The notes beneath the pieces are model-generated. The model was not told where the DNA came from, did not search any database, and was given only the letters and a program-made list of their open reading frames with translations. A stretch of 64,000 nt of DNA, taken from NCBI GenBank assembly GCA_043228905.1, contig JBHGNT010000006.1, positions 13,454,001 to 13,518,000 on the forward strand, in the 5' to 3' direction. Position 1 is the stretch's first letter, and every line of letters starts with the position of its first letter. Positions 3,001 to 60,693 of this stretch are shown piece after piece. Source of the DNA: Azolla caroliniana (lineage: Eukaryota > Plantae > Polypodiophyta). A program made the translations under genes and the position numbers.

Positions 3001-4613
3001 TGTTCGCTAGATCTAGGCTATTAGTAGTATTAGTACTATTAGATATCTCTACTGTAATAGGCTCGGGTTTAGTACAATTAGAACTAGCAACTATTTGGTT
3101 TACCTGCCTTCTTGGCCTATGGGACACTTTATTGCAATGTGTCCTGGTTTACCGTAGTAGAGACATAGTCGATTCATTCGGCATCGCTGCTTTTCTTCTT
3201 CGGATAATGGTCCTCAACGACGTGTAGTGTCAATCTCCATTGGAGACGGAGTATTCACTGGAGGCGCATTATAGTACTCCCTCGATAAAGGTTTTGCTAC
3301 TATTGAGGCGTACATGGGCTCTGCTCTTGCCCTCGGCATCTATAGCTGTCGTTCCGAACGTCGCTCAAAGAGGCGGTTGTCACATCTCACCGCGCGACTG
3401 ATTGCTTTTGTTAAGGACTTTGGCTCTTCAGGGAAGGTCAAGAGTAAATCCTTGACATCGTTTCATAAACCATAACGAAATTGCTCCATCAACGCTTGAT
3501 CATCCCAAGGGATGTCAACGGCGAGTAGTCGGAAATCTGCAGCATATGCAGAGGCTAGACGATCTCCTTGGGGTAATTGCCGGATTTTGTTGATTGCAGT
3601 CCTTATGCTGTCAGTATCTCCAAAGCATGCTTTAAACTCACCTATAAACTCTTCAAAGTTGTTGAGTAATGGAGACTCCTTTTCCAACAGTGGAGCGAAC
3701 CATGCCAACGCTGAGCCACTTAACAACGTCCCTACTAAACCCACTCGTGATGCATCGGTAGGATATCGGGAAGGATGCATTTGAATAACTAATCGTACCT
3801 GATTAAGGAACCCTCTAAACTACGATCGTGTTCCATCGAACTTCGTGGGAAGGCCAATCTTGGGTTCCTTATGAAGCCCTTGTGTTCCGGGGCCTTGTTG
3901 TTGCATCGCTACGATGGTAGCTTCGAGTTGTTGCACGCGTAATGCAAGTTCCTCATGTTGTTGTTGCGTTTGCTGCTTTTCTAAGGAGATTTGTTGAAGA
4001 TCCCCCAGCAACCATTGATTTTCTTGTTCCGAAGCAAGGAACTTCTCTTTCAAGCATTAAAACTCTGAGAAAACAGATTGATATTCCTGAGCGCTAACAG
4101 TGACCATGGGATGAAAAGAAAAGAGGAATAAGATATTAGTATGAAGGGAGAGAGACAGAAGGGAAAATCGGTTCAAACTGTCAAGAATAGCACTAAACCG
4201 AGAGAGAATTAGTACTAAACAGAGAGAATTAGTACTAGAGAAGGGAAGTACTATTAGTACTAAGAGGAAGAGAGAAGAGGAGAGAGAGAGATAGCGGGGA
4301 CGAGAGAGAGAGAGAGATGATGATAACAGATTTTATATTATAAGAAGAGTAAGTACAAAAGGGCTATGAGTCTAAAGACTGGCGTTGAACCGATTTGGTT
4401 TGAAATAATGCCTTGTTCCTCCTTTTATAGTGTTCTAAGGAATACTCCTGAAGTTTCTAGAATGTTCCAGAGAAATCTGGAATATACATCAATTTTCTAT
4501 AATAAAACATAAATGAAAATAATATTCTACGTATTACAATGTATGGTCTAATGGTCAAGAGATCGACCCATGTAGCATAAGGTCATGGGTTCGAGTCTTG
4601 CCATATCATGACA
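1..4613 (-). mobile_element. Rearranged Tcn1-like chromovirus (Ty3/gypsy), 3' part outside the window; gag, duplicated protease/RT-N and interleaved integrase/RNase H fragments
   Basis: ORFs 321-1154 and 2061-2930 both encode LLDSGG protease and the RT N-terminus. Gag fragments lie at 3463-4053. The sequence is highly similar to the complete copy at 6891-12574. The 5' LTR is at 4179-4613. Confidence 0.9.
4179..4613 (-). repeat. 5' LTR of the rearranged chromovirus
   Basis: TGTCAAGA...TCATGACA termini; homologous to LTRs 6891-7342 and 12144-12574; adjacent non-tRNA PBS at 4165-4176. Confidence 0.9.
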
Positions 4614-4616
4614 TGC

Positions 4617-5339
4617 ACGCCAGTCTTAAGGCTCTTAGCCACTTTGTACTTATCTTTCACATAGTATATTAGCTGTTGTCATCATCTTTCTCTCTCTCTG
4701 TCTCCTCTTCTCTCTTCCTCTCTTGGGAATCTTACGTTGTCCCGTCCTCTTAGTACTAATAATATCTACGGTTACCACCCACAAACCGACGGCCAAGCCG
4801 AACGAACAAATCAACTGCTGGAGTAGTATCTACGGTGCTTTCTTAGCTATCATCAGGATAAATGGGCAGATATTCTCCACTTCGCTGAATTTGCCTATAA
4901 TAACTCTATCCACGCATCGACTAAAGTGACGTCATTTTATGCTTATACGGGATGTCACCCTCGGTGGGGTCTCTCTCGTCCTCGTTATCTCTCTCTCTCC
5001 TCTTCTCTCTTCCTCTCTCGGGAGTCTTACGCAGTCCCGTCCTCTTAGTACTAATAGTACTTCTCTTCTCTAGTACTAATTCTCTCTCTGTTTAGTACTA
5101 TTCCTGACATTTTGAACCAATTTGGTTCAAAACAATGCCTTGTGCCTCCTTTTATAATGTTTTTTGGAATAATCCTGAAGCTTCTAGAATGTTCCAGAGA
5201 GATCTGGAATATACATCAATTTTCTATGATAAAATATAAATGACAATAATATCCTACAAATTACAATTCATAGTCTAATGGTAAGAGCTCGACCCATGTA
5301 GCATAAGGTCATGGGTTCGAGTCTTGCCATATCATGACA
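4617..5339. repeat. Scrambled chromovirus LTR: R-U5-PBS inverted relative to U3, with an embedded integrase fragment (~4765-4970)
   Basis: 4617-5109 is the reverse complement of the LTR R-U5 and ends CCTGACA. It is followed by TTGAACCAATTT (5112-5123) and then U3 in the original orientation ending TCATGACA at 5339. Confidence 0.8.
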
Positions 5340-6989: not shown

Positions 6990-7047
<58 letters not shown>

Positions 7048-7163
7048 TGATAAGAAAGATATTTATTATATGAAGAGAATATACAACGGTGGCTAAAAGG
7101 CTTAAGACTGGCGTTGAACCAATTTGGTTCAACATAATGCCTAATGCCCTCTTTTATAGTGTT

Positions 7164-7211
7164 TTCAGGAGTAATCCTGAAGCTTCTAGAATGTTCCAGA
7201 GAAATCTGGAA
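7164..7211. promoter_or_regulatory. Heat-shock-element array in LTR U3, immediately upstream of the TATA box (7152-7158, - strand)
   Basis: Perfect GAAgcTTCtaGAAtgTTC core (7179-7196) inside ten in-phase pentamer units; core retained in all four LTR copies. Confidence 0.7.
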
Positions 7212-7265
7212 TATACACTAATTTCCTATAATAAAATGTAAATGAAAATAATATCCTACGTATTA

Positions 7266-7337
7266 CAATAGATGGTCTAATGGTCAAGAGCTCGACCCAT
7301 ATAACGTAAGGTCATGGGTTCGAGTCTTGCCATATCA
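7266..7337 (+). other. tRNA-like Pol III promoter module (A-box + B-box) at the U3 end of the chromovirus LTR, antisense to the element
   Basis: TGGTCTAATGG (7273-7283) and GGTTCGAGTCT (7317-7327), 44 nt apart as in tRNA genes; also at ~4544-4600, ~5271-5325 and ~12505-12560. No intact acceptor stem. Confidence 0.65.
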
Positions 7338-7342
7338 TGACA

Positions 7343-7355
7343 CTATCCCCCCTTT
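7343..7355 (-). other. Polypurine tract of the chromovirus
   Basis: AAAGGGGGGATAG on the - strand directly abutting the 3' LTR. Confidence 0.9.
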
Positions 7356-10300
7356 AAAACGACGAGTGTCACGAGTCGTCTTGGATTGAGGACCCGGTTT
7401 GTGTGGATATTGACGATGGAAGTCTTCAAGAAGAGCACGAGCATTGGTTACATTCTCGATCGGTTCCCAAGTACGTTCGCTGGGACTATAGCCTAGCCAA
7501 TCGACTAGATAGTAGAGCTTGTTGCGAACAATCTTGGAATCAAGAATGGCGGCAACCTCGTACTCCGGCCCATCTTCAAGCTCGATCGGGGGTGGAGGTT
7601 GGATAAGACGTTCTGGGATGGTGCTCTCGTGGTAGGGTTCGAAGAGAGAACTATGAAACACCGGATGTATCCGAAGTTGAGGAGGTAGATCGAGACGAAA
7701 AGCAACATCATTAATCTTTCCAATAATTTGGAAAGGACCTAATCGCCGATAATCCAACTTCTCACATGGGCGAGTAGTCTTGATGTGTCGTCGTAGCAAC
7801 CACACCCGATCTCCAATATTAAAACTAGATGGAAGTCGATGACGATCCGCGTAGACCTTGTGTGTTTGTTGAGCTTGCTGGAGATGAGTAAATAAATCCG
7901 CTTGTATCTTGCGTAACCGCTCCAAACGATCCTCCGCGCACGGATTTGTGGACACCTCTAGGGTTTCAAGTACACTCCACCGGGGGTGACATCCCGTATA
8001 AGCATAAAATGGCGTAACTTTAGTGGATGCGTGGATAGAGTTGTTATAGGCAAATTCGGCGAAGTGGAGAATATCTGCCCAGTCGTCCTGATGATAGCTG
8101 AGAAAGCACCGCAGATACTGCTCCAACGTTTGATTTGTTCGTTCAGCTTGGCCGTCAGTTTGTGGGTGGTAGCCGGAAGAGAGGTTACAAGTGACCTTGA
8201 GCATGTTAAAAAGGTGCTTCCAGAATTTTGACACGAACTGGGGTCCACGGTCGCTGATGATACTATCGGGGAGTCCATGATGCCGACATACTTCACGCAT
8301 GACAATTTCGGCAGTGTCTTCACTGGAGATCTCCTTAGTACATGGCAAGAAATGAGCCATCTTCGTATATCGATCGACCACCGTTAGAATCGCATTGAAC
8401 CCCTTAGAGGCTGGAAGATCTGTGATGAAGTCTAGAGCAATGGATTGCCACGGCTTGCTTGGAATTGATAATGGTTCTAATAAACCATATGGATGATGCC
8501 TTGGCATTTTCGCTCTGCAACATGTATCACAAGTCCGAACAAAATCCTCGACAAATTGTCGCATACAGGGCCACTAGAATGATCGTTGTACTAAATGTAA
8601 TGTTTTAGTACTACCAAAATGCCCAGCTGTATATGTGTCATGACAGTTTTGTACTACTCGAAGGCGGCAAGAACCATTAGGAACATACAAAAGTTCTTTA
8701 AAGAAGAGTAATCCATCATGGTATTTGAATTGCCGATAGTCCATACCTGGTGGTTGCGACTGTGAACACGACGCTCGAGAGGGATCAATTTGTGCTAGTA
8801 TAGCTTGGGCGAACGCATCTGTCTTCAAGTCTTCACGTATGGTATCGATAACGCGGGAATCCATAGGCATGTCAAAGATTTGTGTTGCTTGTAATCGTGT
8901 CGGTCCCAAGATGACTTGTTTTTGGTTATCGAAAGCTGGCTCGCCGGGACGGGGTGCTAGATACGAACGCCGTGATAATGCATCTGCCTTCCCTTGGTGC
9001 CTCCCCGGACGATATGTAATTTTGAAGTCGAAACGCGTGAGGAAGTGGGCCCATCGAGCTTGACGTCGATTCAACACACGAGCATCCTGAAAGTAGGCAA
9101 GATTCTTGTGGTCACTAAATACGGTGACTGGATGAGAGGATCCCTCCAAAAAATGCCTCCATTGCATAAAAGAATCCACTATTGCCAATAGCTCCTTATC
9201 ATGGATTTCGTAGTTGATTTCGGCGGCATCAAACTTGCGTGAGTGAAAAGCCACAGGATGTAGCTTTTCATCATTCCCTTGTTGTGACAGAATGCTCCCC
9301 AATGCAAAATCCGATGCGTCAGCTTCGATAATGAATGGTTTCTCCGGATCGACATGAGCTAGAATTGGAGCCGATGTAAATGCTTTTTTAAGACTCTCGA
9401 AAGCCATGTCCGTTTCTTCAGACCAGATGAACGGTTGTCCCTTCCTGGTAAGTTGTGTGAGAGGTAGAACGATCTTTGAGTAATCCTGTATGAACTTCCG
9501 ATAAAAATTGGCAAAGCCTAAGAAGCATTGCACATCCCGTACCGAACGCGGAGTCTGCCATTCTACCACCGTTCTGACCTTAGCTGGGTCCATGGAGATG
9601 CCGTCTGACGAAATGATGTAGCCGAGAAATTCCACTTGGTTGCACCCGAAACTACATTTTTCTAGCTTTGCATACAGACCATGTTCTCGAAGTCGTTTTA
9701 GTACTAATAGTACATGAGAATCATGTTCTTCTTGGGTCTTTGAATAAACCAGTAGATCATCCAAATAGATGATCAAACAATCATCCAATAGATCTCGGAA
9801 TATATCATTAGCCATGTGCTAGAAGACTGCCGGCGCATTAGTGAGGCCGAACGGCATGACAGTATACTCGAAGTGCCCATATCTGGTGCGAAACGCGGTC
9901 TTCCATTCGTCTCCTGGTCGGATCCGTACGAGGTTATATGCTCCCCGTAAGTCGATCTTCGTGAAGAACCTGGCACCATTGATCCGTTCTAAAAGACTTG
10001 AGATAAGGGGAAGAGCATACCTATTCCTGATTGTAACCTTATTCAAGCCACGGTAATCTACAACGAGACGAAGCGATCCATCTTTTTTCTTGACGAAGAA
10101 AATGGGCGCACCGGCTGGAGATTTCGAATGCCGAATGAAACCATTTTCCAAATTCTCCTCTATATAGGCCCGAAGGACTTCCAGCTCGGTTGGTGACAAA
10201 TTGTAGATCAGTCCCCATGGCGGCTCTTTTCCCGGTTGTAAATCGATGGGGCAATCGTACGGTCGATGATGAGGAAGAGTGTTGGCTTGTACTTTATCGA

Positions 10301-12143: not shown

Positions 12144-12574
12144 TGTCATGAACAGTACTGAGACAGAGAAGGAATTAGTACTAAACGAAGGATTAGTACT
12201 ATGAGAGGTGTGGAACTTCTTCGAGAGAAGGAAGAAGTGAGCGAGACAGAGAGAAAGAGAGAGAGAGAGAGAGAGAGTGATGATAAGAAAGATATTTATT
12301 ATATGAAGAGAATATACAACGGTGGCTAAAAGGCTTAAGACTGGCGTTGAACCAATTTGGTTCAACATAATGCCTAATGCCCTCTTTTATAGTGTTTTCA
12401 GGAGTAATCCTGAAGCTTCTAGAATGTTCCAGAGAAATCTGGAATATACACTAATTCCTATAATAAAATGTAAATGAAAATAATATCCTACGTATTACAA
12501 TAGATGGTCTAATGGTCAAGAGCTCGACCCATATAACGTAAGGTCATGGGTTCGAGTCTTGCCATATCATGACA
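12144..12574 (-). repeat. 5' LTR (431 bp) of the complete chromovirus
   Basis: Direct repeat of 6891-7342 with TG...CA termini. Confidence 0.97.
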
Positions 12575-14938: not shown

Positions 14939-16094
14939 TGTCGTGAAGATTTTCGGCAATGGTGTGAAAATGACGTAAAACGTACAAAATTGAGTATGAT
15001 TCATATAAAACAATAATAGTGAAGATACTAATTTTAAGTAAGTTTAATATCTTAGTACAAAAAGATAGAGGTCTTGAAGAGCTTTCGAATGCACTTTACT
15101 ACATAAGAAACGGACATCTAAGTGTCAACTTATGTGGGTAGGAAGTTTACAAAGACAAAGAGAAAAATAAAGTTGCGAGATATCCCACATAGACAGGAAA
15201 TAAGGATCTCACCATATATAAGGTAGAGCAAAATCTATTATCTTTGTGTCTATGTGTGGAGCATAGAGAGTTCAAGGTGACTTGAACTAAGCTATTGGAT
15301 GAATGGGCGTGGCCTGGCTACTTGCAAAGGTTTTGGCCAACCAAAACCGGACTGACGACGGAGCCAGTGAGCCGGCAACGTAACCGGAGACCGGACAGTA
15401 ACTGGCATCCATCGGCATCCAACGACGGAACCGGACAGTAACCAGCATCTAGCGACCAAACGGTAACTGGCATTCGACGATCGGACGATAACCGGGATGC
15501 GGCAATCGGCGGCTAGATGGATAAATAAATAAATATATATATATACATATACACAAGGAAGGGAAGTAAGGATTTAAACCTTGCACCTCCAAGTTGAGTG
15601 TCAATAGACTTACCACTAAGCCAACACATTTTCTTCGAATTATATTTTTATCATTGTAACTTTACATGTAAATTCTCATGTGTGAGAGCTTTGATGATAA
15701 CATGGCATGCATGCATTGCGTGCACGTCTTGCACCCTCACATGCACCATATGCATGGGGGCATCTATAAAAGAGTGGAGGAATCAAGCAAAAAGGGGATT
15801 TTTTGATCAAGCAAGCTTTGTACTTTATATCAAAATTAATATGAACAAGAAAATTCGTTATCCTTTTGAAGAAATCTTGTTTCTTAAATCTAAAAGTTAA
15901 AAGTTCAATCTTAATCTCTCTCTCCATTTCAATCTCTGTCAATCTAAAGTCAAGCGTTTAATCTCAATTTCTCTCTCTCTCAATCTATCTTAAATACTTT
16001 CTCGCTAAAGCTTGTGTGTACTTCGAGTCCTTCCGGTCCAGAACCCCGGCAGTTCGGCCTCACGATCTGCACGTAGTGACGGATCTTCACGACA
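14939..16094 (+). repeat. Solo LTR of the tRNA-Trp-primed (Phygy-like) gypsy group
   Basis: Terminal inverted repeats TGTCGTGAAGAT...ATCTTCACGACA, with the same 5' terminus as the LTR at 56189; TATA at ~15765; imperfect tandem repeats at ~15345-15515. The TSD is degenerate (GTGC/ACAC), but a 4-bp TSD restores the host frame. Confidence 0.85.
15562..15630 (-). other. tRNA-like A/B-box module in U3 of the Phygy-like LTR, antisense to the LTR
   Basis: - strand TGGCTTAGTGG (15613-15623) with D-stem GCTT/AAGT, and GGTTTAAATCC (15570-15580) in a T-like stem; homolog at ~26531-26597. Confidence 0.6.
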
Positions 16095-20800: not shown

Positions 20801-23333
20801 CGCCTCGAAGGTCTAGCTTTGTGAAAACTTTAGCTCCACTAAGACTCTCTAGTAAACTCGATATCAAGGGTAGAGCATATCTATTTCGAACTGTGATTTT
20901 GTTTAAACCTCGATAATCCACGACCAATCGTAAAGACCCATCTTTCTTCTTGACAAAGAAGATGGGTGCACCAACATGCCTTTTAGAATGTCGAATGAAT
21001 CCATTTGCTAAGTGCTCATCTATATAATCTTGAAGGGCCTTGAGTTCAGAAGGTGATAGATTATATATTAGGCCCCATAGTTGCTCTTTCCCAGGTTGTA
21101 GATCGATTAGACAATCATAAGGTCGATGGTCTGGAAGAGAACTAGCTTTAGTTTTGTTGAAGATGTCTTCAAAATCCAAGTACTTAGTAGGGAGGTGAGT
21201 ACATGCCCCTTGTGAACTAGAAGATGGATTTTCTGTTACTGCAAAGATAAACATTTCATTTGACCACCCATCTTCTCGTAAGTTTTGTAGAGATATGGGC
21301 GAGATTTGGTGAGGTTTTGAATCTTGGTTGGTAGTAACAAGGCTGTTGGATTCAGGTTTTTGCTGGAAATCATTGATTGCTCGATTTCTCCAATCAATTT
21401 CAGGATTATGAAGCTCAAACCAAGGCAAACCAAGGATAACTAGATGCTCAGGGCTACTAATTATATTGAAGGAAATCACACAAGCAAAGCTACCAAGGAC
21501 TACCCGAATTGGCTCAAATTCTTCGACTATATCCCTAGATGCAATAGGGCGACCATCAATGACTACAATGGATGCAGGACAAGGGAGGTTTCTCAATAGG
21601 ATTTTTTGGGATAAAGAAAATTGTTTGTCCATAAAACAAGAGTTGGCTCTTGAATCTAAGAGAGCAGATGCAAGAACTCGATTACACCTAGAAGTGTTAA
21701 GCTCAACTTGTGCTGAAAAAACTTTGCTAACATAATTCGATAACATGGAACCACTACTTGGGGCTGACTTTACGTATTCTGGTTTGTCCAACCAAATGGC
21801 TCCGATTTTGATTGCACTTATTCGTTTAATATTTCATTAAGCTGACTCAAGACCTCAAAACTATTGGAACGGCCTAGACATGTGGGGCTACTAGGGATAG
21901 ATGATCTAACTGGGGAATTGGAATTAAGTTTCTCACTAGTATTTACTTGATTTACTTCTCGTTTTGGGCTATGTGGGCAGATGATTGCTATGTGTCATGA
22001 ACCACCACAATACAAACATAGACGGTTTTCTCGGTGTCGTTGCTTCTCAGCTTCAAACAAAGGTCCCCCATGATGTGTTACATCGATCTTCATCGGACTT
22101 GGACCACTTGATGGAATCATGTGTGAAGTTTGGATAGTGCTCGTAGGTGTCGAGGCCTTTACTGAAGCATATGTTTGATCCGTTCTTGGTCGTGACATTA
22201 TTGACGTTCTGAACGTCGCTCGAATAAGCGATTGTCACATCACACTACACGACTTATTGCTTCTGTAGCTAATCTTGGATCTTTGTGGAAAGTTAATAAC
22301 AAATCTTTTACATCATTTCGTAGTCCATAGCGAAATTGATCCACTTCTTCATCCCATGGAATATCACAAGCTAGGAGGTGGAAATCTGCGATGTAAGGGA
22401 GGTGGGACGATCCCCTTGACGCAATCTTCGAATTTTATTGATCGTTGTTCTAACACTATCAGTGTCTCCAAATTTTGCTTGAAATTCTTTAATAAAACCT
22501 TCAAAGTGTTGGAGGAGAGGAGATTTCTTTTCTAGCAGTGGTGCAAACCATGCTAATGTCGTTCCTATTAAGAGGGTTCCTACTAGTCCAACTCGAGTTG
22601 TATCGGTTGGGTATCTATTAGGATGCATATGAATTACTAAACTCACGTGGTTTAGAAATCCTCGAAATTGTGATCGATTACCATCGAACTTCCTGGGCAA
22701 ACAAATCTTTGGTTCTTTGGGAGAGCTTTGTTGCATCGAAGCTTGTTTCGAGTTGCAATACACATGTTGATAACTCGTCATATTTTTGCGCCTTTTCTAT
22801 GCTTACTTGTTGTAAATCTCCAAGCAATCGTTGATTCTCTTGCTCTAGAGCCAGAAACTTATTTGTGAGATGCTCAAGCTCTGAGATGACTCAACCATAC
22901 TCTTGCTTGCTAATGGACTCCATGACGATGATAACGCTTGATAGGATTCTCAAGAAAAAGAAGGAAAGAAGAGAGAGAGAGAGTGAAATTGAGAGGATAT
23001 TCTAGTTCAAACTGTCAAGGCCCTAGCTTGACAAAAGAAGATTGAACAAGAGAGGAAAAGAAAGACACCAAAATGAGAGGGAAAAAGTTATTCATTACAT
23101 ACCCCATAGGGGGTTTATATAATACATCCAATGTATGTAATGGTTCCATGACCGTTATAAATAAGACCATTACGCATTCTTGTACACATGCTCATAGTTG
23201 TGCATGTGTCCATACACATACTCATCCTTACACACTCATTTACTTTACACATACACATCAATCACATCATTACACATACCCTTATGCCTCCCCATATATT
23301 CTTACGGGTAACAACTTCATGGGGTTTCATCTA
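17805..23333 (-). mobile_element. Older, degenerate Tcn1-like chromovirus (gag-PR-RT-RH-IN) with probable 5' LTR from 23013
   Basis: ORF fragments 22371-22781 (gag), 20763-21791 (PR/RT), 20418-20717 (RT, YLDA) and 18991-19404 (IN) are homologous to the complete copy; GTTCAAAC|TGTCA boundary at 23013; right end approximate. Confidence 0.85.
17940..18638 (-). repeat. Copia solo LTR
   Basis: TGACGGG...TCCCAACA flanked by a perfect 5-bp TSD GTAAT; related to LTRs 26664-27250 and 31351-31958; interrupts integrase RIGDHEWLL|RRNVK. Confidence 0.93.
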
Positions 23334-24236
23334 CTCATGATTGTCGGTGTTTTATTTGACCTTGTAAACCCATTTGTATCCGATCGGATTCACTCCCTTC
23401 GGAACTTCAATGAAATTGCATGTCTCGTTTTCCATGAACGCATGCATCTCTTCCTCCTTGGCCTTTTGCCAATTTGGATCCTTAGCCGCTTTTGCGTACT
23501 CTCCGGATCACGCACGCATGTACACATAATGATGTGCCATATACTCATTATAGCCATACCAGATCATGGGACTCTTTTAGCGGGTGGATCGCCGCAACTC
23601 CTGGTTCGCCGATTTCTTGACCTTCGAGGCCGATTTTAACCTCTTCTTCAGAGGTCCATCTTCTTGCTTCCCGGAGTCAGATTCGCTCTGATCCAACTCT
23701 TCCCTGCCAGTGTCATAATCCGACATCTTCTTCTTCCTCGTTTCTTTGTGTGTGAACCGTCTCCTTGGTTCCTTATGCGGGGAAAGCACGATCGAGTCTT
23801 AACTATTTGCTGGCTCGTCATCCTATTGACCGGTCCGGCTCAACTAGTCCGGATTTAGTCCACTGATCCAGAGAAAAGTAGGACTATCGGACTATTCGGA
23901 TTCCGCTATGCTTCTCTCTGTTCCGGATTCATTGCCTCATCCGCAACAATCGGCTTGGGTTCGGGTGATGAGAAGTACAAGGATGTTGATTCGTCATAAA
24001 TGACATCACGACTAACTCGAACTTGCTTCGAGCGGGGGTTGTAGCACTTGTACCCCTTATGCTCGTCGGAGTAGCCAACCAAGATGCACTTCTCAGATTT
24101 TGCATCAAGTTTCTTCCGCTTCTCATCTAGCACATGAGGCAATGTTGCCGAATACCCGAAGATGCACCAAATTCGGCTTCCGCTCGAAATACAGTTCATG
24201 GAGTGACACCTTCGTCCCTGAGGCAAATATCCGATT
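23334..24236 (-). mobile_element. Ty1/copia fragment (integrase C-terminus to RT start)
   Basis: KLDAKSEKCILVGYSDEHKGYKCYNP; related to the copia at 45901-51534. Confidence 0.8.
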
Positions 24237-26465
24237 TGTTGGGAAACTAGTCCCTCCGGATGAGAACCGGATGAGCCGAAGCAAGGAGCTGGATCGGATG
24301 GACCTAGAAGGGGTTCGGCCGGATCCAATGTGAACCATGGGAAGGGACATATTGGTAAATATGTTCCTATGTGCCATTGAGGCCATATTTGTAAATAGCC
24401 CCAAAGTTATATAAGTATAAATATAACTAGGGCAATATTGTTGAGTGATAGAGTTGTGATCATTCTTATTGTTGTATAGAGAGAGAGAGAGAGGATAGGC
24501 ATCATGTTTGAGAACAAGAATCTCGTAAATCGATTCTTGGTCTTTTGGAAGCTAGTGAGACTCAGATATCAAGACGGCTCCAGTATGGCAGAGCACATGA
24601 ATGCCTTCTAGGGGTTTATAAATCAGACAACCTCATTGGAGGTATCTCTAGCCGACGAGGTACTCACGTTGTTGCTGCTTGGTTCCCTCCCGGATAACTA
24701 GGAGACATCTATCCCTAGAAAGAGTAAAATCAAGCTTGCTAGATGAAGAGGCTCGTCGGAAAGACAGGGAAGTGATCTCCGACTCAAAAGCCCTAGTTAT
24801 TGAAACCGACACACAATGAGGGAGAGGCCAGAATTGGAGTCCCCAGAACCGAGAAAAGTTGGAGACGAGGTCAAAGTTAAGGGGGAGGCCCACGTGCTTT
24901 TATTGTGGGAAACCGGGGCACTTCCAGAAGAACTGCAGACACTTCCGGAAGGAGAAAGGGGGAGCCGACAATGCCGACTCGAAGAAGGGTCCAAACCGGA
25001 AGAGTTCGGATCGAAAAGGAACGTTGGCGATCACGACAAGCGAAGAAGAACTGCTGCTCATCACCGAGGAGAGCGAGCTACATCTTGTCAACAACGAAAC
25101 GACGTGTGTGATCGACTCCGGAGCGTCATTCCATCTAACCCCCGACTGGAAGTACTTCGCATCCTATAGAGCCAGAGATCACCGTTGTGTGAGCATGGGG
25201 AATGAAAGTGCATGTCGAATTGTCGGCATAGGAGACCTGAACCGAGTGCAAGTTACTATTGAAAGATGTCTAACACATTCTAGAGGTTCGATTAAACCTG
25301 ATATCAGTCGGTCGGCTGGATGATGAAGGCTACACGAGTAGCACCCAGAACAGAGTCATGAAGTTCAGCAAAGGAAGCCTGATCGTGGCTCGAGCCTGGA
25401 AGATCAACGCATTGTACCTTATGCATGCCCAGATTTTCCGAGAGGAAGTAAACATTGTATCTAACATTGCCGGCGAGTTGTGGCACAAGAGGTTGTGTCA
25501 CATGAGCTAGAAAGGTGAAATATGTGCAGCTTGAGAGGTGCACCGATTGTTTGGCCGACAAGCTGAACCGAACCTCTTTCCAGTCATGACCATCGACAAG
25601 ACAGAAAGAACCACTAGAGCTTGTGCATACCGATGTATTCCAAGTGGACAGGAAGTCACATCCTGGGTCGCATTACTTCGTGACGTTCATAGATGACCAC
25701 AACCAGAAGTTGTGGGTCTCGCCGTTGAAGACGAAGGATTAGGTGCTGACCGTCTTCAGGAAGTTCCATGCAAGAGTGGAAAGAGAAACCCGCTAGAAGT
25801 TGACGGCAGTTTGAGCCAACAATAGTGGAGAATATTGTCGGTCAAAAGGATTCTGACTCAAATTTACTGTGCCGAAGACGTCGGAGCTGAACGAATTGGC
25901 TGAAAGGATGAACTGGATTGTGATGGAGAGAGTTTGGAGCATGTTGGCACATGCTAAGCTACCCAAGACGTTTTAGGCTGAAGCCCTAATGACAATGACG
26001 TATGTGATAAACAAATCACCCTCAACACCCTTGGACAGAGACACGCCACAAAGAGTATGGACCGGTAAAGATGTATGTTGCTGGCACTTGAAGGTGTTTG
26101 GCTGTCTCGCCTACATACATGTACCAAAGGACAAGAGAGCAAAATTGGATCCGAAGTCCTGGCCATGCATATTCCTTGGGTACGGCGATGATGAGTTTGG
26201 CTACCGAGTGCGGGACTTGGTCGACAAGAAGGTTTTTCGGAGTCGAAACATAGTCTTCATGGAAGACAAGACAATTGTCGATTGGGAGTCTGAGAAGAAG
26301 ATAGTGGATTCCAGTTCGACTGATAAAGATCAGTTGGAAGATGCCAGTCGGAAGCCGGATGTCAGCTGAAGACCATGATGAACTGATTGGATTGGGACGA
26401 GGAACCAAACCGACCGAAGAAGATTTGGAACCCGGAGCCGGAAGACCCCGAATCGGATTTGGATA
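24237..26465 (+). mobile_element. Truncated Ty1/copia (partial LTR fused by deletion to gag-PR-IN remnants), same group as 26664-31958 but in opposite orientation
   Basis: Starts TGTTGGGAAAC; CFYCGKPGHFQKNC; IDSGASFH; KVFGCLAYIHVPK..KLDPKS. Confidence 0.85.
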
Positions 26466-26663
26466 GTAAGTTGAAAATATGAATAAAATGAGAACCCGAA
26501 GGCCTAGTAGGATTTTCATGCATACCAACGGGTGCAAGGTTCGAAACTTGCACCTCCAAGTTAAGACACAATTGACTTACCATTAGGCTAAGTTGTTACT
26601 TATTGCACTTTTAAGATTATATTTTTCACATGTAAATGCTTCTACATGAGAGCTTGAATGATT

Positions 26664-29600
26664 TGAAGAGAAATGCACGGAATATCACTCGGCCACAATC
26701 GAGTAGTAAATCACTTCTATAAGAATCAAAAACAGAAATGGGAAGTGGAAAGTACACAAGAAAATGACACAAGATGTTTACGTGGAAAACCCTAATAGGG
26801 AAAAACCACGGGAGCCCACAGACTCCAAACTATCACTATGAAGAGAAGGGGTACGATCAGAGACTCGGAGGCAACGACCTCGAGCTCTATTTCTTCGCAC
26901 AGTGGCGATTACAACAGAGTATCACTCTGTATCTCTCTCTCTCCCTCTCTCTTTGTACAACAGTTACAACAATATGACAACAACACAATCACACACAAAT
27001 GTGATTGCCCTAAGTCATATTTATAGTTATATGAACTTAGGGCTATTTACAAATATAGCCTCAATGAGCTTATTCAAGACATATTTACAAATTTGTCTTC
27101 TCTTCCGGTTCTCACCGGGTCCACTGATCCGATTTCTTGATTTCTACCGGTTCTCACCGGGTCTCCTCCGGTTTCCGGATCTCTTCCAATTCTCACCGGG
27201 TCGTCTTTATTCATCACCAGATCCCATCTGAAGAGACCGATTTCCCAACAATCTCTCTCTTCACTCCGGTATGGGATGTCTTGTAACTCCGATCCATTTC
27301 TGGCATGCGTCCAGCTTGTCGGGTGTCAGCACCCTGGTGAGCATATCCGACCCGTTCCCCTCCATGTGGATCTTCGTCAGCACGAACTCTCGATCTTCAA
27401 CTCGCTCCCGGATCCAGTGGTACCTACGTTGGATGTGCTTCGTTCTGGAATGGTATGTCGCATTCTTTGCAAGGTGAATGGCACTTTGACTATCGCAGTA
27501 GAGCCGGTATTCCTCTTGTCGGCTCCCTAGCTCTCCGATGAAGTCCTTCATCCATAATATTTCCTTGTCGGCTTCCACGGCTGCCATGTACTCCGCCTCC
27601 GTGGTTGACAATGCAACCGTCTTCTGTAGCCTCGACTGCCACGAAACGGCTCCCCCTGCATAGGTCATGACATATCCGGAAGTTGATCGGCTGGTGTCCA
27701 CATCAGCCGACATATTCGAATCGGTAAAGCCTTCCATGAGGGGTTTACCGGAGCCAAATCGGAGGCACATACTCGAGGTGCCCTTCAAGTACCGGAGTAT
27801 CCATTTTACCGCATTCCAGTGCTCTTTTCCGGGGTTGGTCATGAACTGACTCACCACTCCGAATGCATATCCAATATCCAGTCGAGTACACACCATTGTG
27901 TACATCAAGCTCCCGACCGCAGAGGCATATGGAATCTTCATCATATCCGCCTTCTCTGCCTTTGTCTTCGGGCTTTGCTTACTGGATAATCTGCAGTTTG
28001 TCGGGAGTGTCGATCCGACTGGTTTTGCTTCTAACATGTTAAACCGCCGAAGCACCTTTGTCACACACTTTTCCTGTGACAGCCACAATTGCTTCTTCAA
28101 CCGGTCCCGGAGGATGTGCATCCCGAGTATCTATCTTGCCGGACCCAAGTCTTTCATTGAGAAGGTCCAGTTAAGGGCCTTCTTAAGCATCCGTATCTTG
28201 ACTTGGTCTCGTTCGACAATCAACATGTCGTCCACGTACAGGAGCAATATCAGGAGATCTCCTCCATCAAATTTCTTCACAAACACGCAGTGATCGGCCT
28301 ACGTCTTGTGGTACCCTTCATCGGTCATGAAGGAGTCAAACTTCTGGTACCATTGCTGAGGAGCTTGCTTCAGTCCGTATAAGCTCTTCTTCAGCCAGCA
28401 CATCAGGTGCTCCTCCCCTTTCTTCTCAAATCCTTCCGTGTTGATGCATGTTGATCTCTTCTTTGAGGTCTCCGTGTAGGAATGTCGTCTTGACGTCCAG
28501 TTGCTCTACCTCGAGGTCCATGCTTGCCGCTTTGCCCAATACCATCCAGATGGATGTCATCTTTACTACTGGGGCAAAGATCTCATCGAAGTCCACTCCT
28601 TTCTTTTGCTGGAACCCCTTCACCATGATTCGGGCCTTATACCTTGGTGGATTTCCGGCGTCTCCCGGTTTTAGCTCGTACACCCACTGGTTCCGGAGTG
28701 CCCTCTTTCCTTTCGGCAACTCCACCAATTTGTATGTGTGGTTCTCATGCAGGGAATCCATCTCCTCCTGCATGGCACTCAACCACTTGTGGCTGTGGGT
28801 GTCTCCCCTTGCTTCTTCAAAGCTTTCTGGCTCCCCCTCATCAGTTAGCAACACATGCTCTGCATCCAAAAATCTTCGGGGGGCTCTTCTCTCCCGGAGA
28901 GGATATCTCTGTCCTGGGTTTTTGACTGCCAGTTCCTCCATTTGTTCCTCATCCTCATCCGATTTGGGATCTTGTCCGGTTTCGGTGTCTTCTTCTTTGG
29001 TCGGTTCGGTTTCCTATCCGTATCCGGCCGGTTCGTCGAGTGTCATCCGGTTACCGGTTAACATCCAGTTTTCAACTGGGTATATCCTTTTGTCCTCAAG
29101 CCGGTTTTCAATGGATGATCTGGAGTTCGTTACCTTCTTCTTCAACTCCCAGTTGGCAATGGTCTTGTCTTCCATGAAGACTATGTCCCAACTCCAGAAA
29201 ACCTTTTTGTCGACCAGATCCCACACCCTATAACTGAACTCATCATTGCCGTATCCAAGGAATATGCATGGTCGGGACTTCGGATCCAGCTTTTCTCTCT
29301 TGTCCTTTGCCACATGCACGTATGCGAGACACCCGAACACCTTGAGATGCCGGTCAGACACATCCTTACCGGTCCATACTTTCTGCGGTGAGTCTCCGTC
29401 CAAGGGTACTAAGGGTGATCTGTTTATCACATAGGTCGTTGCCGTCAGTGCCTCAGCTCAAAACGTCTTGGGTAACTTGGCATGTGCGAGCATGCTTCGG
29501 ACTCTCTCCATTATGGTCCGGTTCATCCTTTTGGCCAACTCGTTTAGTTCTGGCGTCTTCGGCACGGTTAATTCGAGCCGGATTCCCTTCGACCGGTAGT

Positions 29601-31958
29601 ACTCCTCGAACTGCCCCCGGTATTCTCCTCCGTTATATGCTCGAACCGCTTTTAGCTTTTGGCTGGTTTCTCTTTCCACTCTCACGTGGAGCACCTTGAA
29701 GACGGATAGCACTTGATCCTTCGTCTTCAACGGTGAGACCCACAACTTCCGGTTGTGGTCATCTATGAACGTCACGAAGTAATGCGATCCAGCATGTGAC
29801 TTCGTGTCTCCTTGACACACATCGGTATGCACCAACTCCAGTGGTGCATTCTGTCTCATCGGTGGTCTTGACCGGAAGGAGGTGCGGTTTTGCTTGCCAG
29901 CCAGGCAGTTGGTGCACTTCTCATGTTGCACGTCCTTCACCGGAATGAGGTTGTCTTCGGCAAACCTCTTCATCCCCTTCTCACTCATGTGACATAGTCT
30001 TTTGTGCCACAGCTCACCAGGAGTGTCAGATGCTACGTTCACTTCTTCCCGGCATATCCGGGCATTCATCAAGTACAGTGTGTTAACCTTCTAGGCTCAA
30101 GCCACTATTAAGCTCCCTTTGCAGAACTTCATGACACTGTTTTGGATGCTACCTGTGTAGCCTTCATCATCTAGCCGACCGGCTGATATAAGGTTCAGTT
30201 GAACCTCGGGAACGTGTCAGACATCCTTCAGCAGCAATTTGCATCCGGTTGAAGTCGTCAACAACACATCTCCTATGCTGATAATTCGGCATGTCCCTTC
30301 ATTCCCCATCCGAACACAGCCGTGCTCACCGGTTGTGTAGGATGAGAAGCATTTCTTGTTCGGGCTAAGGTGGAACGACGCTCCGGAATCGATAACCCAC
30401 GTTGTCTCGTCGATGGCAAGGTTCAACTCACTCTCCTCGGTGATGAGCATTAGTTCTTCTTCACTTGCCGTGATCGTCGTTGTTCCCTTTTGGTACGGGC
30501 CTCATCAATCAAAACTGTTTCAGTCTGATGACTTTTTCGAATCGGTACTGTCGGTTCCATTGTCTTTTCGGAAATGCCGACTGTTCTTTTGGAAGTGCCC
30601 CGACTTGCCGCAATAGAAGCAACTGTGCCTCCCCCTTGACTTTGAACGTGTCCTGACTTTTCCCGGTTCTGGGGACTCCGATTCCTTTGTCTTCCGCGTT
30701 CTAATTCGGTAAGAAGGGTTTTGGAGTCGGAGATCACCTCCTTGTCTTTCCGACACGCCTCCTCATCTAGCAAGCTCGACTTGACTCTTGTTAGGGATAG
30801 TTGTTTTCCTTCTGGCCCGGCATTGCCCAACGTGACAACTAACGTCTCCCAGCTATCCGGGAGGGAACCGAGTAGGAGCAGAGCAAGTACCTCATCGGCG
30901 AGAGGTACTTCCAACGAGGTTGCTTGGTGTATCAACCCCTGGAAGGCATTCATGTGCTCCACCATACTGGAGCCGTCTTGGTACCGGAGCCTCACTAGCT
31001 TCCGAAATACCGAAATACCGAAACCCGATTAACAACATTCTTGTTCTGGAACATGATGTCGATCTTCTCCCAGAGTTCATGATCGTTGCTCTCTTCATTG
31101 AAGTTGTTGTACAGGCTCGTGTCGATGAAGCACCGTATGTATGTCGTCTTCTTCATGTGCATCACCTCCCACACTGTGGCGTCGATCTTATCCGGTCTCT
31201 TGTCCCCGAATTGAACCGGTAACCAAAGATCTTTAACCACCAGCATGTCCCTCATCTTCAACTTCCACATTGAGTAGTTGGAGTCGGTGAGCTTGAACAT
31301 GCCGTTGTAAGATTCTTCCATTTTTTGTGTTGTTCGCTCTGATACCATTTTGAAGAGAAATGCACAGAATATTGCTCGGCCACAACCGAGTAGTAAATCA
31401 GTTCTATAAGACTCAAACACAGAAATGGGAAGTGGAGAGTACACAAGAAAATGACACAGGATGTTTACGTGGAAAACCCTAATAGGGAAAAACCAAGGGA
31501 TCCTACAGACTCCGAACTATCACTATGAAGAGAAGGGGTACAATTAGAGACTCGGAGGCAATGACCTCGAGCTCTATTTCTTCGCACAGTGGCGGTTATG
31601 ATAGAGTATCTCTCTGTATCTCTCTCTCTCCCTCTCTTTTTGTACAACAATTACAGCAATATGACAACAACACACTCATACACAAAAAGTGATTGCCCTA
31701 AGTCATACTTATAGTTATATGGACTTAGGGCTATTTACAAATATAGCCTCAATGGGCTTATTCAAGACATATTTACAAATCTGTCTTCTCTTCCGGTTCT
31801 CACCGGGTTCACTGATTCCGTTTCCGGATCTCTTCCAGTTCTCACCTGCCTCTTCTGGTTCTCCCCGGGTCCCCTCTGGTTTCCATATCTCTTCCAGTTC
31901 TCACCGGGTCCTCTTTATTCATCACCGGATCCCATCCGGAGAGACCAATTTCCCAACA
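26664..31958 (-). mobile_element. Full-length but degenerate Ty1/copia (Tnt1/Tork-like)
   Basis: LTRs 26664-27250 and 31351-31958; TSD TGATT/TGAGT; PBS TGGTATCAGAGC (tRNA-iMet, ~31336-31347); PPT at 27251-27260; order gag-PR-IN-RT-RH. Confidence 0.95.
27261..31321 (-). pseudogene. Copia gag-pol polyprotein with multiple stops and frameshifts
   Basis: WVIDSGAS; LWHKRLCH; ELVHTDV; YVDDML; ALSTTEAEY; HSRTKHI. Confidence 0.93.
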
Positions 31959-32701
31959 TGAGTGACATGGTCATCATGCATAACATGCAATGCATGAGCA
32001 CCAAATGGAAATCATGCATTGCATGCATCTCATGCCTTGTATGCATGTCTTACACCCTCACATGCATCATATGCATGGGGGCATCTATATAAGAAAGGAA
32101 GGAAGGGAAAAGGGGGGGGATCAATCTTGGCATCAATCAAGCTATTTATTGAATCAACATCTAAATATTAAAGCACCTACTTATCTTATTGGTGACTTGT
32201 CTTGTTTCTCAACATTGATGTCAAGGGTTCAAACCTAGAATTGGAGTTTCCATCCATCTATCCATCTATCTTAAACACTTCCTCAATTCCCGTCTCTCTC
32301 TCTCTCACACACACAACCAAATTAGTGCGTCACTTCGGCTACCACAATTTCATTTCGTGTGGTCATTCACTCTATCTGTGGAATTCTCATCAAGAAGGAA
32401 ATAGCACCGGCAAAGATCATTTCGTCGTCGTCATCGCCCGGTAAACGTTGCACACCACCACATTACCGCCACCTACACATCAATTCTAGTTCGGATGCGT
32501 CCTTGACAACAAAGAACAACCTGACAATAAACCTAAAACGGCTAATTCCTCTCCTCCATAACCACTAGTGGATAGAGGCCTGGTGCTTGTCCGCGCCTGT
32601 GTGACACTCACATCGCGATGTTTGGCACGTGGGTCACATGCCACGTGACAACGCATCCACGCGAAGAACCACGACATCTTTGGTGAACCCGACGTGAAAA
32701 G

Positions 32702-38176: not shown

Positions 38177-38995
38177 TGTCGCGAAGGATTCCGGCCACAG
38201 AGGGAAACAGAGAGAAACGCGTGGGAATGGTTGTTTACATGGATATACAAAGTTTAGCCTTTATTTATGAAACATGTAATAACATTGGACTAGTAATGAC
38301 TAGGTAGTAGGGTTAATGGGCACTTTGAAGACCCGCACGGATAAAGAGGAATGTGGAGGTTTGACGTTAGGGAATTGAGGAAAATCTCTGTCGAAAGAGG
38401 TTGACTTAACTATCTGATGTAATAGCTCTCTCTCTCCTTGAGCTATAAAAGGAGGGAGAGAAGACTGAGAAAGGGATCCGGGAATTAGGAGGAGGAAGTG
38501 ACGTCAAATTGAGCGCCGAGTTCTCTACCTCTCTCTCTCTTTTCCCGTCTTGTGCTCTACACTGTTTCGAAGAGGGAGAGGAAGTCTTTGCAAGCGTTGG
38601 CAGTCTGTGTGCTCCCGACCAGAGATTCTTTGTCCTATCTCCTTCTGTGTGTCTCTCTTGAGAGCGCAAAGCGTTGTTGCCGGCCGCGCTTGGTTGTACT
38701 CTTTGGATTCTCTCTTAATCATTAGTTTGTTGAGTCCCCTTTGTTGGCGTTTCTGTGTGGCTCCTACTTGTCATGTGTTTGCCGTGCTCTTAGCTCGTGT
38801 CTTATTCCCGTCCTGAATATGTTGCGTGCACGTACGATTCCGCGAGCTTGTGCACTTGCCACTGTTCCTTGGCATCCTAACTGGGGAAAGATACACTCCC
38901 TTAGGCCGGCGAGCTGCTCTGCTCTGATCCGGGTATCGTTCCGTGTTTGATACGCCACCGCGAACCAGTCCGGCGTACCTATCTGGACTATGACA
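38177..38995 (+). repeat. 3' LTR of the Phygy-like element
   Basis: TGTCGCGAAG...TATGACA; CTATAAAAGG at ~38443; preceded by the same 3'-UTR motif (GGATGTGC...GGGGTGGA) as at 61092-61116. Confidence 0.75.
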
Positions 38996-54745: not shown

Positions 54746-56902
54746 ATGATATCACTGCGTGCTTGAGATGGTATTCAATAACTGTTACACTTAATGTGTA
54801 TCCTATGAAAGCTGAACAAAAAAATAGGACCAAGCGCAAGGGGCAATTGCTTGATACCATAGATGTAGGATAGGCCACAAAAAGGCTGATTTCAGGTACT
54901 TTAAAAAAAACATTGTGCATAGAATCCCAATATGCGGATGTGAAAGAGATAAGTTTCCAAGATAAAAATAGCTCTAAAGGCAAAGAAAGGCCATCTCTAA
55001 ATGGATATGTTCATCCATTTGTTTTATGCTGACTTGTTTGGTTGTGTTACAAGTTACAACTTAAATGGATATGTTCATCCATTTGTTTTATGCTTCTTTC
55101 TTCAAGCTTCGATAACTCTATTTTTGGTAAATATATCAGTTTTGTATTTTATTTGTTTACCTTTTTATGTACGAGTGCGTTGTCTGCTAGTCTCAAAAAG
55201 CATGTTCAAGTTTTTTTGTGCTCCATTCTTTGATTTTCTTGTCTCATATAATATGGCAATTAACCAAAAGTGAAGAAATTGGCAATTGTTTGTACCTATC
55301 TTTGTTTTAGGTAACTGCCAGAACCTGTTTGTACCCTCTTTTCATGGTATGAATCACTGAATCCTCCATTATCAAAATTGCAAACAAATCAATCACCTCA
55401 TCAGGAATTACCAGGCTAACAATAAACGCTAATAGTGATGCTAATATCTTCCTCGTTAATTCTTGTATAGCATGTATATAATTTAACAGAAACCCATTTA
55501 ATGAAGATCCTAGAAAATTCAAAGATAACCAAGCTCAATTACACAGCTTTTTAGTGAAACCTACTTGGGCTATGTTTTCTGTTATCATTTGGGAATTAGC
55601 AAGGCCATTGCTTCCAGCAAACAATATTTAGGAACATTTTACCACATGCTTGGTAAGTAGGCTCAATCTTTTGATGCTTGATGACCTTCATGTGCTGATT
55701 AAACCAGAAAATTCTGTGGGTGAGTTTTTAGTAATCTAATTCAATTCTATATAACGTTTTATAGAAAAGAAGGAACTATATGTGCTATTTGAGTGATTGA
55801 TATGTGTTGATTGAGTTTTATAGGAACAACATTAAATGGAATCATCATCTCAAACTCATGCAACAATGGAGTCATCGTCAGTTAATGTTAGCCATGGGCC
55901 AACAACTACAAGCAGCTCAAGAAAAAGGCAACGAACATCATGGATAGATGCTCACATCATATCATATATGGATAATGGCACACCTCGACGACGATGCCAT
56001 CACTGTGTTGTTTGTTGGCCTCTGCTAAAGAATCTCGTGTTTTAGAGAATAAAATTGATGCTGCCATCACAAAGTATATTCTGATGGGAATATTGCCCCA
56101 TGCACATGTGGAGTCACTTGAATTTAAGGAGTTCATACATCAAATTGTGTCTGGATATCAAGTGAAGACAAGGCGCACGATTAAACGTTGTCGTGAAGAT
56201 TTTCGTCCACAAGCGGAAACCCGAGCAACGAGAGCCAAAGAGCGATGTGCAACGTTGCACACGTACATAATGTATTTGTAATAATAATAGGGGAAAAGGG
56301 TATGGTGCTAGAAATGCCCCATAAGATCCCTAAGGTATAAAGGTGATGTGGTCTTGTGCACACATCCACGCAAGAGAGAGAGAGAGGTACTATGCGGTAC
56401 ATAGGTACCTAGTTGTTTGTGAGGAGGTGGGAGTTAAGGGGTGCCATCAATCTCACCCTCCCCAAATCAAGGCAAATATCCCCTTTGAATGAAAGGGGAT
56501 ATTTTAGTCTCGTTTTTGTAAACGGTCTTCCCTCCTTGTGCTATAAAAGGAGAGGGAAGGCACCATTGTGAGGGTTGCCTATTTTGAGTGTGCGAGGTAT
56601 ACCACATAGGTCGAGCGTTAGGGTTAGGGTCAGGGTTTCGAGTAGTCGTTTGGTGCGGCCTACGCGGCCACCATTTTTGTAATCGTTCATCTCGTTTTAA
56701 TACATCTTGTTGTTCATCTTGTCTCCATCTTCCTCTTGTTCATTCTTCTTCTTCTTGAGCAAAGCTTCCATTCCGTGTCTGATTCCTTCTCCTCTACTCC
56801 TTAGTCCAAGACCCCCGTGGTCCCGCCCTTCTCCACGCACGCGCGTAGCAACGCGACATATTTGGTGAACCCGACGTGAAGAGGCGGCAAGGGAGGAAGG
56901 AG

Positions 56903-59900: not shown

Positions 59901-60693
59901 CGACACGGAGGTCGGGTCTACGGCGGATGAAGGGCGTAACACGAAGCATGCATTACGGTTAGTGAAGGGCCCAAGAACGAGCATGCATCCGAGAGAGCGT
60001 CAACGAGTGACCGGAAACGGTGGACCGATTAAGCCTTTGAGAGGCGAGGACTCGGTGGTGGACCGAGAGTGGGAGGAACCCTCCACACCTACCCGTGAGG
60101 CATCAGCGGTTGCGGATCGAAAGGAGAACGAAGAAACGGTGGGTGGAGGCGAGGAGTTGGAGACCGACGCGGAGGTCGGGTCTACTGCGGATGAAGCGCG
60201 ACATGAGACGCATGCAATACGGTCGGTGGAGGGCCAAGACACAAGCATGCATACGGCGGATGGGCGACAACGATTGACAAACGATGACGGTCGGGTCAAG
60301 ACTTCGAGAGGCAAGCACGGGACGAAGGACGGCGCGGCAAAACACCAAGACCGACGACATGGGCCGAACACGATCGGCATGAGCGGAGAGTCGTGTCTTG
60401 AGAACCGAAGAAGGTGCGCGGAGAGCAACGGGCTACGCGCCGGGAAGAGGAAGCGCGGCTTCCCGGAGGGCATGCAAGGCCAAGCGAGCCAAGAGGGCGC
60501 AAGTCGAGGCAAAGCGGTAACGAGAGCCTCAAGGGACACCGACACGGAGGTCGGGATGACAATACGCTCTACTACGAGAGAGCACGGCGAAAAAGGGGAA
60601 AGCAAAAAGCACGTGATGGGGTCATCGAAGAACCGAAGCGCGAGCACGCATTCGGAGGTGCGCGGCACGCAAAGGGCGGAATCCGGCATGTGA
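56903..60693 (+). pseudogene. Gag-N-like domain fused to a long repetitive, low-complexity region; reconstructs to ~979 aa
   Basis: Removing the solo LTR plus TSD (835 bp) and two extra GGCGGTAA units (16 bp) gives a 2940-bp open frame. The N-terminus (REFDLRFSQLS..DKVPLFLKSV) resembles the gag at 33470-34050. Confidence 0.75.
57491..58320 (-). repeat. Solo LTR (copia-like) inside the young non-autonomous element
   Basis: TGATGAGG...CATTAACA flanked by perfect TSD AATGG; shares ACGTGGAAAAACCC with the other copia LTRs; short tandem repeats (CACCAAGCTT)n and (CTATGCTTC)n. Confidence 0.9.

Follow-up and report, generated by a model that had tools for sequence, protein, structure and literature searches.

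tRNA-derived A-box/B-box modules point away from TATA-like boxes in the LTRs of Phygy and chromovirus-type elements of Azolla caroliniana

Introduction

Among the closest described counterparts of the LTR module reported here are Helenus and TRIMp3, non-coding TRIMs of 311-1263 bp for which transcription of the element by Pol III has been proposed; in the sections of that paper drawn on here, the autonomous partners of Helenus are argued to need Pol II, its sole plant case is Selaginella, and 'not a few' Repbase LTRs are said to share partial similarity with tRNAs (Kojima 2024, PMC10886601). Sites of the same kind act outside mobile DNA in yeasts, where tDNA barriers require TFIIIC and Pol III and, in fission yeast, function in both orientations (PMC2040200), and where ETC sites, bound by TFIIIC without polymerase, act as boundaries (PMC3395662). 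Among plant gypsy elements, Phygy is characterized by a 4-bp NCGN TSD, a tRNA-Trp PBS and the lack of a chromodomain, whereas Tcn1-like elements bear a chromodomain (Neumann et al. 2019, PMC6317226). In moss, the chromovirus RLG1 is expressed, although heterochromatin is considered to be its target (PMC7466625).

The modules that we describe in Azolla caroliniana resemble Helenus/TRIMp3 and Cassandra in being small-RNA (tRNA)-derived LTR segments with conserved boxes, but their carriers include elements of 6.8-8 kb that contain pol ORFs and have a TATA-like box distinct from the module, and the modules themselves are antisense, whereas the Helenus segment would be sense, judging from its proposed role (PMC10886601). 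A Pol III promoter placed so as to transcribe its own element is not what we found, as all 11 U3 modules of an unselected sample are antisense and a separate TATA-like box is present, a sense module in one family (family G) being a possible exception. Simian foamy virus likewise has a Pol III A/B-type promoter in the U3 of an autonomous retroelement, with cassettes that are dispensable for replication in culture; unlike the modules studied here, which are tRNA-register relics with no conserved hairpin, these cassettes are miRNA hairpin genes with terminators (PMC3993851). Yeast tDNA barriers and ETC sites share with the modules the placement of A/B boxes, or of a lone B box, beside a Pol II promoter or boundary, but they are host loci with shown binding that work in either orientation, whereas the modules are mobile and polarized, and TFIIIC binding is predicted for them (PMC2040200, PMC3395662). 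The consulted parts of the Phygy/Tcn1 survey make no mention of a tRNA-like LTR module (Neumann et al. 2019, PMC6317226), nor do those of PMC2864245, PMC7466625, PMC13570524, PMC3286476 and PMC13437025. A search of full-text literature found no antisense A/B module in the LTRs of autonomous plant gypsy elements; Helenus Table S1, the large REXdb files, Repbase and subscription papers lie outside its scope and may contain cases.

Results

The window analysed is a stretch of 64,000 nucleotides (assembly GCA_043228905.1, contig JBHGNT010000006.1, positions 13,454,001 to 13,518,000 of the forward strand), and its features are collected in Table 1. The A-box, B-box and TATA consensus motifs and the tRNA numbering are those of textbooks. 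A first-pass annotation had described an antisense A/B-box pair in U3 of a Phygy-like solo LTR, about 140-200 bp upstream of the TATA box, and both statements hold: a matrix derived from tRNA genes of this genome gives the pair 25.3 bits (best of 20 shuffles, 12.0), and the distance to the TATA-like box is 140 nt for the A box and ~190 nt for the B box. The gap between the boxes is 32 nt, a distance of 32-33 nt being found in 53 of 59 tRNA genes of this genome. When all 27 LTRs were shuffled, 24.4 bits were reached in 1/540, and a strict A+B pattern, matched 95 times across selected loci totalling 533,921 bases, was absent from each of five shuffles. Antisense in U3, the module is present in both chromovirus and Phygy LTRs, far above shuffled controls. 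A functional tRNA gene at 15571-15623 is ruled out, as ARAGORN reports no tRNA gene in the 64-kb window, Rfam RF00005 gives no match and the cloverleaf stems are broken. The annotation had also considered an ordinary SINE with TSDs. Genome-wide, the Phygy-type module pattern has 1575 matches and none in a reversed control, and its context is a Phygy LTR in the first 30 of these 1575 loci and on 17/17 metagenome contigs. A search with the family A LTR gave 4075 first-look candidates in the 523-Mb genome, 40 of them scored, and the module is part of the LTR at all 30 family A loci retrieved. An ordinary SINE at 15571 is ruled out; a rare free donor is possible among the 1545 further pattern matches. 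A GC-rich array of short units, which differs in length between copies, occupies 15359-15500 in the U3 of family A and adjoins the 3' side of the module.

Table 1. Modules, LTRs and associated features of the window
Feature	Position	Strand	Remarks
Chromovirus module, additional LTR copy	4544..4597	+	A/B boxes
Chromovirus module, additional LTR fragment	5271..5323	+	A/B boxes
Chromovirus module, 5' edge of 3' LTR (6891-7342; element on -)	7273..7326	+	antisense to element
Chromovirus module in 5' LTR (12144-12574)	12505..12558	+	A/B boxes
Phygy family A solo LTR (TG..CA)	14939..16094	+	no clean TSD; flanking 4-mers agree at 1/4
tRNA-derived A-box/B-box module	15571..15623	-	tRNA register retained, stems broken; in 30/30 family A loci
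B box of family A module	15571..15580	-	one key-position change in window copy; intact in most family copies
A box of family A module	15613..15623	-	motif and tRNA matrix
TATA-like box of family A LTR (putative Pol II promoter)	15765..15771	+	assigned by motif
Phygy family B LTR, 5' part	26461..26661	+	own 5' end missing; boundary approximate
Family B module with copy-specific perfect hairpin	26538..26590	-	A/B boxes
Copia insertion between family B module and TATA	26662..31958	-	LTR pair 26662-27250 / 31349-31958
Remainder of family B LTR	31959..32650	+	TATA-like box ~32085
Weaker A/B relic downstream of family B TATA	32182..32235	+	matched in 27/30 family B loci
Module-less Phygy LTR	38177..38900	+	end approximate; element in module-less clade
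Module-less Phygy-type LTR	56189..56858	+	LTR pair partner 61117-61786

What the modules conserve is the tRNA register and not the tRNA structure. Seventeen of them (15 from LTRs, 2 from a free SINE) keep 7-8 of 8 key positions in the A box and 7-8 of 8 in the B box, and the distance from T8 to G52 is 43-44 nt in all 17, whereas pairing extends to 1-4 of 5 positions in the anticodon stem and 0-5 of 7 in the acceptor stem, as compared to full pairing in three real tRNAs. Because modules were located by A/B patterns, their box identity is inflated; the fixed spacing and the samples anchored on the PBS or PPT, which were drawn without that selection, are free of this bias. Between lineages, identity is 0.72-0.86 in the B box and mostly near background in the flanks, the spacers diverge freely, and the module is the sole U3 block that aligns between family A/B and family C/D/E LTRs. 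Pooled over four families, the ratio of shared to singleton variants is 7:44 in the module and 289:596 elsewhere in the LTR (Fisher p=0.005, with copies that are not independent), and the singleton rate per site is equal (0.21 and 0.22, respectively). Inside single families, constraint on the boxes does not exceed that on the spacer (p=1.0), key positions compared with the rest give p=0.16, and 18% of the other 53-nt windows of family A are equally conserved. An upstream CAA motif, present in 4/17 modules, is uninformative. The module is a real, lineage-wide and probably selected feature.

The carriers of this module are Phygy by the published marks of TSD, tRNA-Trp PBS and RT-RH-IN without a chromodomain. 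A paired member of family A (L061) has a PBS, RT, RH and IN and lacks a chromodomain by Pfam, and the same Phygy arrangement is recognized by Pfam in L275. In 13 of the 14 full solo LTRs of family A, 4-bp TSDs of NCGN or CpG-decayed form agree, by eye, at 3 or 4 of 4 positions, with 4/4 agreement in 6 of the 14; the window copy, at 1/4, is the exception. The complement of the PBS equals the 3' end of genes called tRNA-Trp at 4/4 loci, and exact matches to the Phygy PBS number 5527 in the genome. Carriers L061, L237, L275 and L277 are 6.8-8 kb long with pol present, and short derivatives of 2.5-3.7 kb also occur in families B and E. Family G (L275:283-1378; 2599 first-look candidates, 40 scored) is young, with LTRs that are 99.9% identical, ORFs of 680 and 1164 aa, and RT, RH and IN. 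Family D was found with an A/B pattern whose spacing misfits family A, and family B, which has no RT, is tied to family A by LTR homology only.

Within Phygy the module is confined to part of the tree. Seventy of the 5527 exact PBS sites were chosen by their position on C1 regardless of the module, which is present in 10 of these 5' LTRs and absent from the other 60; the U3 modules of this sample, 11 in total, are all antisense. With the tRNA matrix, no score above 12.4 bits is seen among eleven Phygy LTRs without the module and three copia LTRs. The first-pass annotation had failed to find the module in the LTRs at 38177 and 56189, and the matrix scan agrees; its suggestion of a general LTR strategy in this genome is not supported, as the module is absent from 60/70 Phygy 5' LTRs and 3/3 copia LTRs. 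Module-bearing elements form three deep Phygy lineages (A, C/D/E and G/H), and one abundant clade without the module, which includes the element at 38177, supplies most copies and has young members (LTRs 99.5-99.9% identical). On an RT-RH DNA tree of 27 elements the presence of the module amounts to one change (100/100), and on integrase trees of 20 elements one change suffices; an RT protein tree with chromovirus RT as outgroup leaves the base open and gives two changes, one also being possible. Nine elements (L064, L235, L259, L260, L279, L287, L289, L290 and L293) were excluded from the trees, as their RT or IN match was fragmentary, ambiguous or part of another element. The unrooted tree is equally compatible with a single gain and with an ancestral module followed by one loss, and the midpoint of the integrase tree favours the side of loss.

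Several further observations concern Phygy elements. The element at 56189-61786 is young (LTRs 99.7% identical), its internal region is GC-rich and repetitive, and a 700-aa frame within it (58591-60693) has no Pfam match. A metagenome contig (L346) holds an AT-rich Phygy in the tandem order IN-PPT-LTR-PBS-gag, whose LTR has little beyond the module region in common with the families of this genome, and which joins G/H on the integrase tree, where long branches meet. At L262:838 the second head of the free SINE described below lies upstream of a Phygy PBS, perhaps as an ordinary SINE insertion into a module-less LTR.

The annotation had further held that a chromovirus carries an antisense module in U3, and the window indeed contains four copies, antisense to an element that has a PF00385 chromodomain in 7338-8570 and whose LTR carries the module 16 nt from its 5' end. 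Thirty genomic loci were anchored on a purine-tract (PPT) pattern, 24 of which start like LTRs. An antisense B box lies no more than 60 nt from the end in 18 of these 24 chromovirus-type starts versus 10 of 240 control windows, with a sense match in 1; of the six misses, five show their best match, weaker but antisense, in the same slot, and one (L419) is probably no LTR. Upstream of 14 of the 24 starts there is a chromo/SH3 match, three of the 14 (L407-L409) being one tandem cluster. Chromovirus-type LTRs place the end of their B box 6-37 nt from the terminus, three of them (L402, L416 and L427) lack an A box at tRNA distance from the B box, and the heads differ from family to family, such that several unrelated heads occupy one slot. 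The Selaginella SM-Tcn1 LTR has, by eye, no such box at its 5' edge, and the R-region motif of the chromovirus-type LTRs resembles that of SM-Tcn1 by eye only. Two loci stand apart: in a chromovirus-type LTR at L422:1500 the module comes after a purine tract and after a frame similar, by eye, to a copia IN-RT junction, so this element is possibly chimeric, and a diverged chromovirus-like LTR stretch at 23011-23400 of the window, which may be truncated, has no module in the part scanned.

The U3 position and antisense polarity that the annotation had reported for both lineages recur beyond the window (11/11 modules in the PBS-anchored Phygy sample, 18/24 chromovirus-type starts), and the position is set with respect to the TATA-like box. 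In 15 families the A box is 113-250 nt from this box and 70-743 nt from the LTR 5' end; the module of Phygy family A, which lies 630-740 nt from the LTR end, tracks the TATA-like box instead. Two of the 17 modules (B2 and G2) have no TATA-like box in range, TATA boxes having been assigned by motif. The family G LTR has three modules, two antisense and upstream of the TATA-like box and one sense and downstream, and family B has a weaker sense relic that is also downstream, to which the B2 relic is related (15.2 bits only). Every module found points away from the TATA-like box, and in view of the sense copies in families G and B, the polarity is better described as away from TATA than as antisense.

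The diverged relative that the annotation had placed at ~26531-26597 proved to be a module of family B, the sister of family A, and is present at 30/30 family B loci examined, with a damaged B box in 2. The T-arm-like hairpin noted at 26531 exists as a perfect hairpin in the window copy, but it is ruled out as a conserved trait, being perfect in no other of the 30 family B loci; the window copy lacks 5 nt found in the others. Other copia sequences of the window include related internal regions at 24346-26317 and 29117-31069, inverted to each other and 73-83% alike, and a young element at 40465-45900 with LTRs that are 99.1% identical and an unbroken 1313-aa ORF on the minus strand.

A source for one chromovirus-type module could be traced. 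A second A/B pattern has 618 matches in the genome and none in the control, and the first 30 of these 618 loci comprise 22 copies of a free ~200-bp element, 6 loci at which the match is the 5' edge of a family F chromovirus, and 2 other contexts. The free SINE-like element (L175-L204, e.g. C1:2328146) lies in GA-rich tracts. It has a tail rich in A and, in several copies, TSD-like repeats, and it carries a second tRNA-like head that converges on the first; the end of this second head is visible in 18/30. The family F module matches the head of this SINE at ~90% identity (67/74 columns) and has no body, tail or TSD, except that one copy (L203) keeps a few extra bases of SINE body. This match points to capture of a SINE head separate from the Phygy module, and independent capture in this one chromovirus family is well supported by the alignment. 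The annotation's statement that the Phygy and chromovirus modules differ in sequence is confirmed by their middles, which are at background identity (0.18-0.34). Its proposal of convergent tDNA capture stands in part: family F represents a separate capture, but within Phygy one change on the tree suffices, so inheritance with loss, or a single gain, fits as well as convergence. Positions 44-51 are common to families A/B and C/D/E (0.84), so that these modules have one origin, and likeness just after the B box makes a donor common to chromovirus 1 and C/D/E possible. When 18 anticodon types were compared, the module of family A2 aligned best to tRNA-Arg(TCT) (64 vs 53), with an Arg-type loop kept, and the other families gave near ties. 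Paired tRNA-Arg(ACG)/(TCG) genes, with 554 pattern matches in all, repeat every ~1180 bp in long tandem arrays at C1:25118108-25154362 and C9:18389019-18396447; at C18:8833105-8877193, C8:17796786-17823371 and C16:4989495-5105657 there are tandem or clustered genes of tRNA-Ala type (1191-bp period) and tRNA-Trp type, their isotypes being taken from other loci with the same patterns.

Discussion

On the reading that we put first, while giving it slightly less than an even chance, the module would be a fixed tRNA-derived head that has lost its cloverleaf and kept its boxes, likely as a DNA site for TFIIIC that keeps the Pol II promoter open or shielded. TFIIIC would land on the module DNA, either together with Pol III or without it, and once bound it would shield the LTR promoter from neighbouring heterochromatin, either as a barrier or by clearing nucleosomes. 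TFIIIB would assemble on the side that faces the TATA-like box, and any Pol III would head in the direction opposite to the Pol II promoter, an arrangement that would account for the polarity. The heads would have been captured from a SINE or tRNA at least twice and then selected during replication of the element. Chromovirus-type LTRs with a B box only have the pattern of TFIIIC-only sites. Fission yeast barriers are free of orientation, so the strict polarity seen here needs an extra assumption if TFIIIC is the ligand. The strongest point against necessity is that the module is dispensable, as the clade that does without it holds more copies than any other and is still young. A wider proposal, which we regard as possible but doubtful, is that two anciently separated autonomous gypsy clades repeatedly captured tRNA or SINE heads, and that selection kept these as portable TFIIIC insulators that face away from, and sometimes bracket, the LTR promoter, thereby providing a built-in anti-silencing device for elements that dwell in heterochromatin.

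Alternatively, the module could be an active Pol III promoter whose antisense short RNA feeds small-RNA control of the element's own U3/PPT/integrase region or acts as a decoy. Most families do have complete A and B boxes at tRNA spacing, the Phygy modules are followed by a T4 run 83-383 nt past the putative start, constraint within families is equal for spacer and boxes, and the U3 cassettes of foamy virus yield small RNAs (PMC3993851). Folding gives a divided answer: it is stable in 5/15 LTR modules (z -2.6 to -4.5), but there is no common RNA fold and z is above -1 in the other 10. As the terminator distance is not conserved, B-only modules exist and spacers diverge freely between lineages, we consider this explanation unlikely.

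The modules may instead be neutral relics of SINE heads that landed in a few master LTRs and were copied along, the antisense bias arising since sense copies in U3 would harm the genomic RNA. Such a history would accord with the free SINE family and its likeness to chromovirus F, with the most numerous Phygy clade having no module, with the one change on the Phygy tree and with the Selaginella Tcn1 LTR, which by eye lacks the 5'-edge box. Neutral copying would not, however, predict that boxes and exact spacing persist in lineages whose U3 has ceased to align and whose spacers show background identity, that shared variants are depleted in the module (p=0.005), that several unrelated heads fill the same slot in chromovirus-type LTRs or that family G has three modules, and we judge it rather improbable.

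The steady distance to TATA and the constraint on all 53 nt within families would also suit an ordinary upstream element of Pol II that was co-opted, with its box likeness partly historical. What is kept between lineages, however, is the TFIIIC consensus and its spacing, with no shared Pol II factor motif, and this makes such an element quite improbable. Ty3 targets Pol III genes, and by analogy TFIIIC near the LTR end might tether or place the cDNA or attract nested insertions, a role that the terminal position of the chromovirus-type B box, a copia located 71 nt upstream of the A box in the window copy of family B (n=1) and one family A2 module inside a tRNA-Arg array could be taken to favour, but which is very improbable given that the family A module lies far from the LTR end and follows TATA and that target choice in family A is NCGN, as in published Phygy.

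How elements that sit in silenced chromatin are transcribed is an open question for plant chromoviruses, and a two-box cassette at a steady distance from TATA, present and absent in sister lineages, offers a natural comparison. The SINE head documented here beside its LTR-captured form represents the origin proposed for Cassandra and Helenus. Even without a function, the Phygy families A-E alone would supply at least 1575 A/B-type sites as possible TFIIIC sites in this genome. If the TFIIIC reading is true, the boundary function of tDNA and TFIIIC that has been shown in yeasts would extend to plants and to mobile DNA.
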